Assembly (NCBI RefSeq): GCF_003334765.1
Contig: NZ_QOWT01000012.1
DNA length: 64,000 nt
Source: Escherichia coli
GTDB lineage: Bacteria > Pseudomonadota > Gammaproteobacteria > Enterobacterales > Enterobacteriaceae
Direction: 5' to 3' (one strand)
Made by a program: the position numbers and the translations under genes. Positions 58,722 to 60,141 of this stretch are shown here, piece by piece; positions within the stretch are counted from its first letter, which is position 1; every line of letters begins with the position of its first letter. The notes below the pieces were generated by a model, which ran no database searches, was not told the DNA's origin, and saw only the letters and a list, made by a program, of their open reading frames with translations.

Positions 58722-59282
58722 ATGGCAACTTTTGGCTACGGACGTGTTTCGACATCGCAGCAGGATACTGAGAACCAACGGCTGGAGCTTGGGCAGGCTG
58801 GGTGGCAAATTGATTACTGGTTTGCCGATGTTGTTAGCGGGAAGGTTCCGGCAATGCAACGTAAAGCATTTTCTGAAATGCTCAATAAAATCCGCGATGG
58901 TGAAACGTTGGTGGTAGCGAAGCTTGATCGTCTGGGGCGTGATGCGATTGACGTCTTGCAAACGGTAAGGGCGCTGGCTGACCGTAATATCAAGGTTCTT
59001 GTCCACCAGCTTGGTAACACAGATCTCACTTCTGCCGCTGGGAAGTTGCTATTATCTATGCTCGCCGCGGTTGCGGAGATGGAGCGTGATCTGCTGATTG
59101 AGCGCACTCAGGCGGGACTATCACGAGCAAAAGCCGAAGGTAAGAAATTGGGCAGACCTCCTAAAATCGCGTCAGAAGCCCGTAGAGAGATTTTAGAGAA
59201 AAAGAATAGCGGTTTGAGTATCAGTGCGTTAGCGCGTCAATATGGCGTTTCAAGAGCGACTGTAGCAGCTATTACCGATTGA
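58722..59282 (+). mobile_element. Serine recombinase (resolvase/invertase family)
   Basis: 186-aa ORF after a GGGGAG RBS; N-terminal catalytic motif MATFGYGRVSTSQQDTENQ (serine nucleophile), DRLGRD motif, C-terminal HTH (LSISALARQYGVSRATV). Confidence 0.85.
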
Positions 59283-59295
59283 ATATGGAGAGTTT

Positions 59296-60141
59296 ATGGC
59301 TTACACAGCAACTGTTATCCCTGTAATGATTGCTTCTCCTGGTGATGTCGCTGAAGAGAGACAAGTCATTCGTGAAATGATCCATGAGTGGAATGATATA
59401 AATTCAGCTCGTTCAAAAGTAATGTTGACACCAATTGGATGGGAAACTCATACATCACCCGAATTAGGAGTTAGGCCTCAGGAGTTGATTAATCAAAGAT
59501 TATTAGTAGATTGTGATTTATTAATCGGTGTGTTTTGGACTCGTCTAGGCTCACCGACTGGGAACGAGGCCAGCGGAACAGTCGAAGAAATCCACCGTCA
59601 TTTGAATGCGGGAAAACCGGCAATGATTTACTTTTCCTCAAAGCCTGTTGCCCCTGAAAGCCTTGATAGAGAACAATATGAGTCTCTTAAATTGTTCAAA
59701 ACTGAGTGCATGCAAAAGGGATTGATAGAGTCTTTTAATGACTTATCTGATTTCAAAGAAAAAGTCCGTAGGCAACTTTCGATAATTATTTCTAGTAGCC
59801 CTTATTTGTCTTCTCTTATATCTACCATTAACAATTCTCCTGATGCGAATACAAGTCAATCTTTGCCAGAAAGTAATTTGTCCGCCGATGCACTCAGTTT
59901 GCTGAAATTAGCATGTGTCGATGATAGCGGAACAATTTATGTGATAAGGCATTTAGGTGGCACGGATATTCAAGCGGGAAATCAATCCTTTGGTGGAAGT
60001 TCGGCTAGAGAGGTAGCCCGTTGGGAGGGCGCACTTAACGAACTGTTATCCTTTGATTTTGTGATTGAAAGAGGGGCAAAAGGACAAATGTATTATGTTA
60101 CTCATAAAGGCTGGACATTTCTTGAATCTTTAAATGAATAA
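59296..60141 (+). CDS. 281-aa hypothetical protein with an N-terminal Rossmannoid nucleoside 2-deoxyribosyltransferase/LOG-SLOG-like domain
   Basis: Starts 13 bp after the recombinase stop (likely co-transcribed); AT-rich. Residues ~60-110 (DCDLLIGVFW…SGTVEEIHRHLNAGKPAMIYF) resemble the D…GT-x-EE…GKP signature of NDT/LOG-type domains; C-terminal ~100 aa unassigned. Confidence 0.5.
   Translation: MAYTATVIPVMIASPGDVAEERQVIREMIHEWNDINSARSKVMLTPIGWETHTSPELGVRPQELINQRLLVDCDLLIGVFWTRLGSPTGNEASGTVEEIHRHLNAGKPAMIYFSSKPVAPESLDREQYESLKLFKTECMQKGLIESFNDLSDFKEKVRRQLSIIISSSPYLSSLISTINNSPDANTSQSLPESNLSADALSLLKLACVDDSGTIYVIRHLGGTDIQAGNQSFGGSSAREVARWEGALNELLSFDFVIERGAKGQMYYVTHKGWTFLESLNE

Follow-up and report, generated by a model that had tools for sequence, protein, structure and literature searches.

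Proteins with a DUF4062 domain have recently been described as TIR-like NADases (Osinski et al., bioRxiv 10.64898/2026.05.01.722283). In that work, E. coli was made to express, one at a time, five DUF4062 proteins from enterobacteria and Acinetobacter whose C-terminal auxiliary domains resemble one another, and the strongest protection was obtained with the proteins from K. pneumoniae and from 'Enterobacteriaceae/E. coli'. The same preprint showed that the Swarozyc protein KpSwz depletes NAD+ and causes abortive infection, that its defence requires Glu97 and the auxiliary domain, and that this helix-turn-helix (HTH)/winged domain binds the phage portal, upon which the enzyme is activated; the structure of KpSwz presents a TIR-like dimer and a helical stalk, with a small β-sheet following the last core helix. 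Evangelion, a set of DUF4062 single-gene systems of Gram-positive plasmids, was reported by Ibarra-Chavez et al. (bioRxiv 10.64898/2026.06.25.731849), who place Swarozyc in a separate DUF4062 lineage. Here we characterize a gene for a protein of 281 amino acids (aa) which lies directly behind a serine recombinase gene in a stretch of 64,000 nucleotides from Escherichia coli (assembly GCF_003334765.1, contig NZ_QOWT01000012.1; hereafter the window, whose first letter is position 1). We consider it likely, with a probability of roughly 0.75, that this gene encodes a self-contained DUF4062 defence protein of the Swarozyc type, carried as cargo behind a backbone recombinase of the genomic island integrated at leuX.

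The 281-aa protein was modelled with AlphaFold2 (AF2) from an alignment of 36 sequences, which gave a mean predicted local distance difference test score (pLDDT) of 80; a single-sequence model (pLDDT 37) was unusable. The model comprises a β-α TIR-like core (strands 6-13, 42-47, 75-80 and 109-114, with a low-confidence loop at 48-58), a short strand at 144-147 after the last core helix, stalk helices at 150-179, a disordered linker and a C-terminal winged-helix-like domain at 197-281. One polypeptide therefore holds an N-terminal DUF4062 α/β domain of the NDT clan, a helical stalk and a C-terminal HTH/winged auxiliary domain. Residues S93, G94, T95, E97 and E98 are invariant in the 36-homologue alignment (motif S93-G94-T95-x-E-E), and in the model both glutamates stand at the beginning of helix 94-104, which at the level of sequence and model is where the catalytic glutamate is expected. 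Pfam DUF4062 matched residues 10-99 weakly (3.1e-4), no NCBIfam family matched the protein, and a profile search of PDB sequences gave no match. Homologues number 2179, nearly all of them about 280 aa and full length; the best 120 listed are about 55% identical and mostly from Proteobacteria, with members of 43-50% identity in other phyla. Among the best 50 AFDB50 matches listed, 49 are named DUF4062 and one OST-HTH/LOTUS, most being 260-300 aa long and aligned across both domains. RefSeq names the gene product 'hypothetical protein' in most records listed. The initial annotation had described the protein as SLOG/NDT-like: its second half stands, the domain being TIR-like and of the NDT clan, and the first was dropped, as the closest relatives are not of the LOG, Smf or MoCo-carrier type that marks the SLOG superfamily. 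Among the alleles found in the island, mean identity is 72% in the TIR-like part, 31% in the stalk, 22% in the linker and 48% in the sensor domain; a conserved TIR-like part with a variable stalk and sensor is, as far as sequence can tell, the pattern expected of a defence effector with a fast-evolving sensor.

By analogy with KpSwz, the 281-aa protein would be an NADase that is triggered by infection and acts through abortive infection. Its C-terminal winged-helix domain would recognise a phage protein (in KpSwz, the portal), and this recognition would rearrange the helical stalk and free the N-terminal TIR-like domains from an auto-inhibited oligomer. The serine recombinase would stand outside this machine; it is a backbone gene of a 7.3-kb SpLE5-like integrative island whose cargo slot extends from the recombinase stop codon to the stop codon of a membrane-protein gene. 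The likeness to Swarozyc covers the single gene, the N-terminal DUF4062 TIR-like domain with its conserved Glu at helix C, the short strand and helical stalk after the core and the C-terminal HTH/winged domain (both as modelled by AF2), the enterobacterial host and the location in a defence island. The window protein is possibly an already tested allele of the kind described in the 2026 preprints.

Several points weigh against this assignment. The comparison with Swarozyc is made at the domain level, the tested proteins being known by their UniParc identifiers (UPI001927123B, UPI0002A39D72 and three others). The published KpSwz numbering (15-C construct, D16, R18, D71, E97, W176, W238 and Y239) does not correspond one-to-one to the 281-aa protein: an offset of -1 fits D16, D71 and E97 and is incompatible with the 15-C truncation. 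The protein spends 90 residues on 78 positions of the Pfam DUF4062 model, and the lineage is thus about 12 residues longer than the matched Pfam stretch. Finally, the DUF4062 alleles seen in Enterobacterales all stand at the same 13 bp from the recombinase gene despite protein identities of 62-83%, and a functional coupling of the two genes, for example in expression, is conceivable.

Other described systems share less with the locus. Evangelion proteins likewise combine a DUF4062 core and a diversified auxiliary region in one polypeptide, are borne by mobile elements, deplete NAD+ and cause abortive infection, and Enterococcus plasmid proteins match residues 4-159 of the 281-aa protein with about 35% identity; Eva01 differs in coming from Gram-positive resistance plasmids, in its short, unrelated auxiliary region and in its trigger, replication-associated processes. 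The PADLOC model PDC-S60 (906 positions) is matched at positions 5-169 by the N-terminal 160 residues (5.8e-27), but describes a protein about three times longer with another C-terminal part, so that only the effector and stalk module is common to both. A DUF4062 gene of Salmonella Senftenberg NCTC10384 (L121, 5001-5573; L numbers denote the loci of our comparison) is 49% identical over residues 1-160; located at the end of a prophage, it follows the large terminase gene and is interrupted by an IS3 element. The uninterrupted Salmonella version has 282 aa (A0A725MPJ8); with 33% overall identity and the same architecture, it stands for a second lineage in enterobacteria.

The recombinase gene and the 281-aa gene follow each other on the same strand in different frames. 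The recombinase open reading frame (ORF) opens with an ATG at 58722 (MATFGYGRVSTSQQ...) and closes with a TGA at 59280-59282; the second ORF runs from an ATG at 59296 to a stop codon at 60139-60141. The 13-bp spacer between them holds a GGAG upstream of the second ATG, and this start codon is backed by the N-terminus MAY-A-VIPVMIASPGDV, conserved in the 36 homologues. A 3.1-kb query covering 58400-61500 is 100% identical to the chromosome of E. coli Nissle 1917 and to many other strains, and at the Nissle locus RefSeq calls the same two coding sequences. A crude consensus scan of the gap found neither terminator-like nor promoter-like sites, and it gave no promoter-like site in the recombinase gene's 3' part either; a consensus terminator was likewise not found downstream of the 281-aa gene. 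Sequence and scan thus bear out the arrangement reported at the outset by the initial annotation, with the recombinase stop at 59282, the next start at 59296, a gap of 13 bp on one strand and no terminator. The same spacing recurs in divergent Enterobacterales loci (L003, L004, L082, L089-L095) and is therefore no chance feature of this strain; the spacer sequence of the window is identical in L082 and carries 1-3 changes in L003 and L004. Because the DUF4062 gene lies 13 bp behind the recombinase gene, has a ribosome-binding site of its own and is separated by no terminator, co-transcription is plausible, and read-through from the recombinase promoter probably accounts for at least part of the expression of the gene. 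The linkage is old within this island family, since every enteric allele seen starts 13 bp past the recombinase stop behind a similar ribosome-binding site. A 90%-identity cluster of the 281-aa protein also contains 'recombinase family proteins' of 176-197 aa, which suggests either a fused or mis-called ORF bridging both genes in some assembly or a clustering artefact.

The recombinase itself is a small serine recombinase, with a Pfam Resolvase domain (1.4e-36), a C-terminal HTH_7 (2.2e-5) and a Ser10, in GYGRVSTSQQ, which aligns with that of γδ resolvase. It matches γδ resolvase at 1.4e-25 and the DNA invertase 4m6f at 6.5e-23, and is on these comparisons about equally similar to resolvases and to a DNA invertase; its best PHROG is phrog_125, 'DNA invertase' (1.2e-55). 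The Resolvase domain with Ser10, the HTH_7 and the length of 186 aa are what it has in common with the γδ and Tn3 resolvases and the Gin and Hin invertases, from which it differs in that no res, gix or hix-like dyad sites, transposase or invertible segment was found with it.

The distribution of the two genes tells how far they belong together. In a census of 80 loci with homologues, one per species, 73 had at least 700 bp upstream to be judged, and recombinases were sought with tblastn and phmmer. An adjacent upstream serine recombinase was present in 3 of the 73, all enteric (L002-L004): L003 is an Enterobacteriaceae metagenome-assembled genome (MAG) and L004 a Citrobacter. L002 (JAIJJM010000048.1) is a contig of 9.9 kb that was assigned to a Collinsella sp. 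MAG; it carries both genes in the same order with proteins each 100% identical to those of the window, and is most likely a mis-binned E. coli contig. Three further loci have an unrelated serine recombinase 1.3-7.5 kb away. When the neighbouring ORFs of the 80 species loci were clustered, no family recurred next to the DUF4062 gene, and on this genomic evidence the gene has no obligatory partner. Among the large adjacent genes in other species, 10 of 20 match PADLOC defence models (LmuB, type I, III and IIG restriction enzymes, mad3, PDC-S06 and RecD-like). Seen from the other side, relatives of the recombinase in viral contigs (28-87% identical) have a DUF4062 neighbour in 0 of 25 cases. The recombinase gene occurs in 754 and the DUF4062 gene in 438 of 5,426 complete E. 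coli genomes; the former is found without the latter in about 316 genomes and in 29 plasmid records, where the recombinase is 80-95% identical. None of the 444 places matching the DUF4062 gene in E. coli is on a plasmid, and no Escherichia record stands among the plasmid matches listed. Conserved co-occurrence across both families was thus not seen, and the proposal that the pair forms an undescribed system of a recombinase and a nucleotide-processing enzyme had to be given up. The initial annotation had itself named, beforehand, homologues lacking conserved linkage to recombinases or neighbouring genes as the outcome that would count against it, and outside one enteric island family this is what we found. 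A true integron integrase was seen once among the tyrosine recombinases near homologues, in Roseateles violae (L021, 5782-6825, minus strand; NCBIfam 525 bits, cut-off 435); it lies 1.2 kb upstream of the DUF4062 homologue (8001-8843, plus strand), on the opposite strand and with two small ORFs between, and this homologue is probably an integron cassette.

Comparison of island variants shows where the exchange takes place. Homology between variants is lost at the recombinase stop codon, give or take about 10 bp, and returns at the stop codon of the membrane-protein gene. The slot thus bounded contains one of three DUF4062 alleles (protein identity 100%, 83% and 62-65%), an unrelated 400-bp filler (PSJ-07 and plasmids), an HNH endonuclease gene on the other strand (DG342-2) or ECs_5250 (Sakai), and in variants lacking DUF4062 the membrane-protein gene still accompanies the recombinase gene. 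The slot can take the DUF4062 gene or other cargo, and the recombinase gene belongs to the backbone. Within the island, the DUF4062 protein is the most diverged (62-83% identity, versus 82-90% for the recombinase and 90-100% for the HTH regulator), with the divergence centred in the stalk and sensor, and its gene has a GC content of 0.39 versus 0.50-0.51 in the flanking backbone. ECs_5250, ECs_5251 and the HNH endonuclease match no PADLOC model; because PADLOC recognises none of these three alternative cargo proteins, the 'defence' label of the recombinase slot rests on DUF4062 and on context. ECs_5250 (L086, 8769-10085) and the 371-aa HNH protein (L088, 6658-7773) are uncharacterised defence candidates. 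Variable slots with known or candidate defence genes follow at least three backbone genes of SpLE5-like islands, namely the integrase, recombinase and HTH regulator genes; those found in the other slots include a Shedu SduA_C protein (L089, 506-1663), a PDC-S31/DUF2971 protein (L088, 2311-3036) and a methyl-directed restriction-like DUF6998 protein (L087, 8334-9212; mREase_II, 1.8e-70).

These observations have to be set against other explanations of the pair. A true two-component system of Enterobacterales, in which the recombinase regulates, mobilises or acts with the NADase, would fit the 13-bp junction and ribosome-binding site seen in all enteric alleles (the window, L003, L004, L082, L089-L095), the finding that all E. 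coli DUF4062 copies examined sit in the recombinase slot, the missing terminator between the genes and the three conserved GTTTTCTGGCA repeats that overlap the likely recombinase promoter. In one version the recombinase would bind these repeats, auto-repress the shared promoter and throttle a toxic effector. The repeats lie within 100 bp upstream of the recombinase start, are clustered only there and may be an operator overlapping a weak predicted promoter (TTGGCT-17-TAATGT); seven island variants preserve them, some of which lack the DUF4062 gene. We judge such a system unlikely, given that the linkage is absent in 70 of the 73 species loci and in all 25 viral-contig relatives of the recombinase, that a recombinase gene preceded by the same repeats is also found beside different cargo or without any, that enterobacterial DUF4062 proteins defend alone from a plasmid (bioRxiv 10.64898/2026.05.01.722283) and that the GC step at the junction marks separate origins. 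Two looser versions are, even taken together, still less probable: the recombinase and the three repeats might form an auto-regulated promoter dosing the toxic NADase and other cargo, or the recombinase might catalyse the exchange of cargo at its own 3' end, as an integron-like cassette platform run by a serine recombinase. Against such a platform counts the fact that recombination sites were not found at the cargo borders, where a comparison by eye of five slot variants revealed no shared motif.

That the recombinase is a DNA invertase flipping the DUF4062 segment, as in a phase-variable defence module, is suggested by its best PHROG label and by an inverted repeat of 21 nt and 81% identity (59270-59290 and 60657-60677) which brackets the DUF4062 gene and most of the membrane-protein gene. 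This repeat does not stand out from 13 further chance-level pairs within 8 kb, its second arm is inside coding sequence, and a synthetic inverted junction was matched, at a query coverage of at least 80%, at 0 places in the 5,426 genomes; together with the equal similarity of the recombinase to resolvases, this leaves an invertase hardly any credit. No evidence was found here for a module controlled by the recombinase through inversion, or mobilised by it. No better is the case for a relic of a Tn3-family transposon, made of a resolvase and its passenger gene: the recombinase has about 40% similarity to the γδ and Tn3 resolvases, and one plasmid record reads 'Tn3 family transposase', but that label was put on the gene of the 186-aa recombinase (a mis-annotation), and a transposase gene does not lie next to it. 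No tnpA was found beside the recombinase in any inspected context, terminal inverted repeats not having been searched for specifically, and its neighbours are the fixed island backbone. It is also very improbable that the 281-aa protein is a non-defence protein, be it a housekeeping enzyme acting on nucleosides or nucleotides or a transcription factor of the winged-helix type, considering its patchy spread (438 of 5,426 E. coli genomes), its place in a low-GC mobile island, the defence-gene neighbours of its homologues in other phyla, the lack of an NCBIfam match and its fast-evolving C-terminus. Of the suggestion that the locus is an anti-phage accessory module, what survives is the likely defence gene; the joint system with the recombinase does not. 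A self-contained Swarozyc-type protein in an island cargo slot accounts best for the locus, whose features are collected in Table 1.

Table 1. Features of the cargo slot and of the surrounding island at leuX, in window positions.
Feature	Position	Strand	Basis
tRNA-Leu(CAA), leuX, integration site	54507-54591	+	ARAGORN; tRNA-Leu in Nissle 1917, leuX in Sakai
attL, 28-nt direct repeat, tRNA 3' end	54567-54594	+	Repeat search, 100% identical to 61881-61908; also blastn
Large tyrosine integrase (DUF6538 + Phage_integrase), backbone	54682-56592	+	RefSeq 'site-specific integrase' (L001, 8283-10193)
NIPSNAP family protein, backbone	56725-57057	-	RefSeq
DUF1643 gene, disrupted, backbone, divergent from recombinase	58063-58529	-	RefSeq 'frameshifted' pseudogene; phrog_3230, 9e-51
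Three direct copies of GTTTTCTGGCA	58602-58612, 58657-58667, 58689-58699	+	Pattern search, 0/1/0 mismatches
Small serine recombinase of resolvase/invertase type (186 aa, Ser10), backbone	58722-59282	+	Pfam, PHROG
13-bp spacer with Shine-Dalgarno sequence, ATATGGAGAGTTT	59283-59295	+	Sequence; junction kept in relatives
281-aa protein (gene 59296-60141), residues 1-147: DUF4062 TIR-like domain, presumed catalytic Glu97/Glu98 at start of helix C	59296-59736	+	
281-aa protein, residues 148-196: two-helix stalk (150-179) and disordered linker (180-196)	59737-59883	+	AF2 model; least conserved part
281-aa protein, residues 197-281 and stop: C-terminal winged-helix auxiliary (sensor) domain	59884-60141	+	
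Small membrane protein, 164 aa, backbone, convergent with cargo slot	60202-60696	-	RefSeq 'membrane protein'; phrog_20749, 1.1e-102
XRE-type HTH regulator, backbone	60937-61401	+	RefSeq; PADLOC 'control protein', 1.9e-18
attR, right 28-nt repeat, end of 7.3-kb island	61881-61908	+	Repeat search; blastn to L082 tRNA 3' end

The element is a tRNA-integrated island, with an integrase gene beside the tRNA gene and a perfect 28-nt repeat at the far border. Its genes follow in the order integrase, NIPSNAP, DUF1643, recombinase, DUF4062 (cargo slot), membrane protein and HTH regulator. The integrase matches phrog_1 integrase at 2.8e-32, its Pfam families being read on homologues. The NIPSNAP gene carries that name in L001 (Nissle), L082/L083 and DG342-2, and Sakai and L094 have an ORF of the same size at the same position. 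The disrupted DUF1643 product is 99% identical over residues 7-155 to the intact protein of L082. The interval of about 1 kb between these two genes (57058-58062) holds no ORF of at least 50 aa, and tblastn of the gene of 306-338 aa which L085 and L094 carry in this interval gave no match to the window. In O157:H7 Sakai this backbone bears the annotation 'phage-like element SpLE5' at leuX; it is present in other E. coli strains and other Enterobacterales as well, and as a fragment on plasmids. SpLE5 shares the integration site and backbone with the window (recombinase 82% and HTH regulator 90% identical) and differs in its slot, which holds ECs_5250 (438 aa, opposite strand) instead of DUF4062, and in an IS629 insertion.

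Among the known defence hotspots of E. coli, leuX is number 37 and is described as the one with the highest occupancy; the main text of the hotspot paper of Hochhauser 2023 mentions neither leuX nor DUF4062. Just before attR, the tRNA 3' end recurs a third time in degenerate form (68%; 61765-61792), next to an 82% copy of the sequence after the tRNA (54650-54671) at 61799-61820, which suggests remnants of earlier tandem integrations. The next gene past the island border (62439-63263, plus strand), in a low-GC stretch (0.36-0.40), encodes an AbiJ-NTD4 protein with a full-length match to PADLOC PDC-S32 (E 5.6e-104) and, by this match, appears to add another defence candidate at leuX, carried by a tandem element. 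Beside it, in AT-rich DNA with a strong negative AT skew, lies an ORF of 208 aa (63312-63938, minus strand) for which a significant family match was not found.

What remains new here is small: the fixed, probably co-transcribed position of a DUF4062 gene behind a recombinase gene, of which a search of the main text and the supplementary text file of the Swarozyc preprint found no mention, and the multi-slot SpLE5-like island. The analysis gives a likely function, anti-phage NAD+ depletion, to a gene present in about 8% of complete E. coli genomes, whose carriers include the probiotic chassis Nissle 1917 and the reference strain ATCC 25922. The tempting pairing of a recombinase and an enzyme is an effect of island architecture. 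The compact multi-slot SpLE5-like island could be mined for defence candidates, such as ECs_5250 and the HNH gene, and if the E. coli protein tested with Swarozyc is one of the alleles described above, the three alleles of the slot would form a natural series for the study of sensor specificity.

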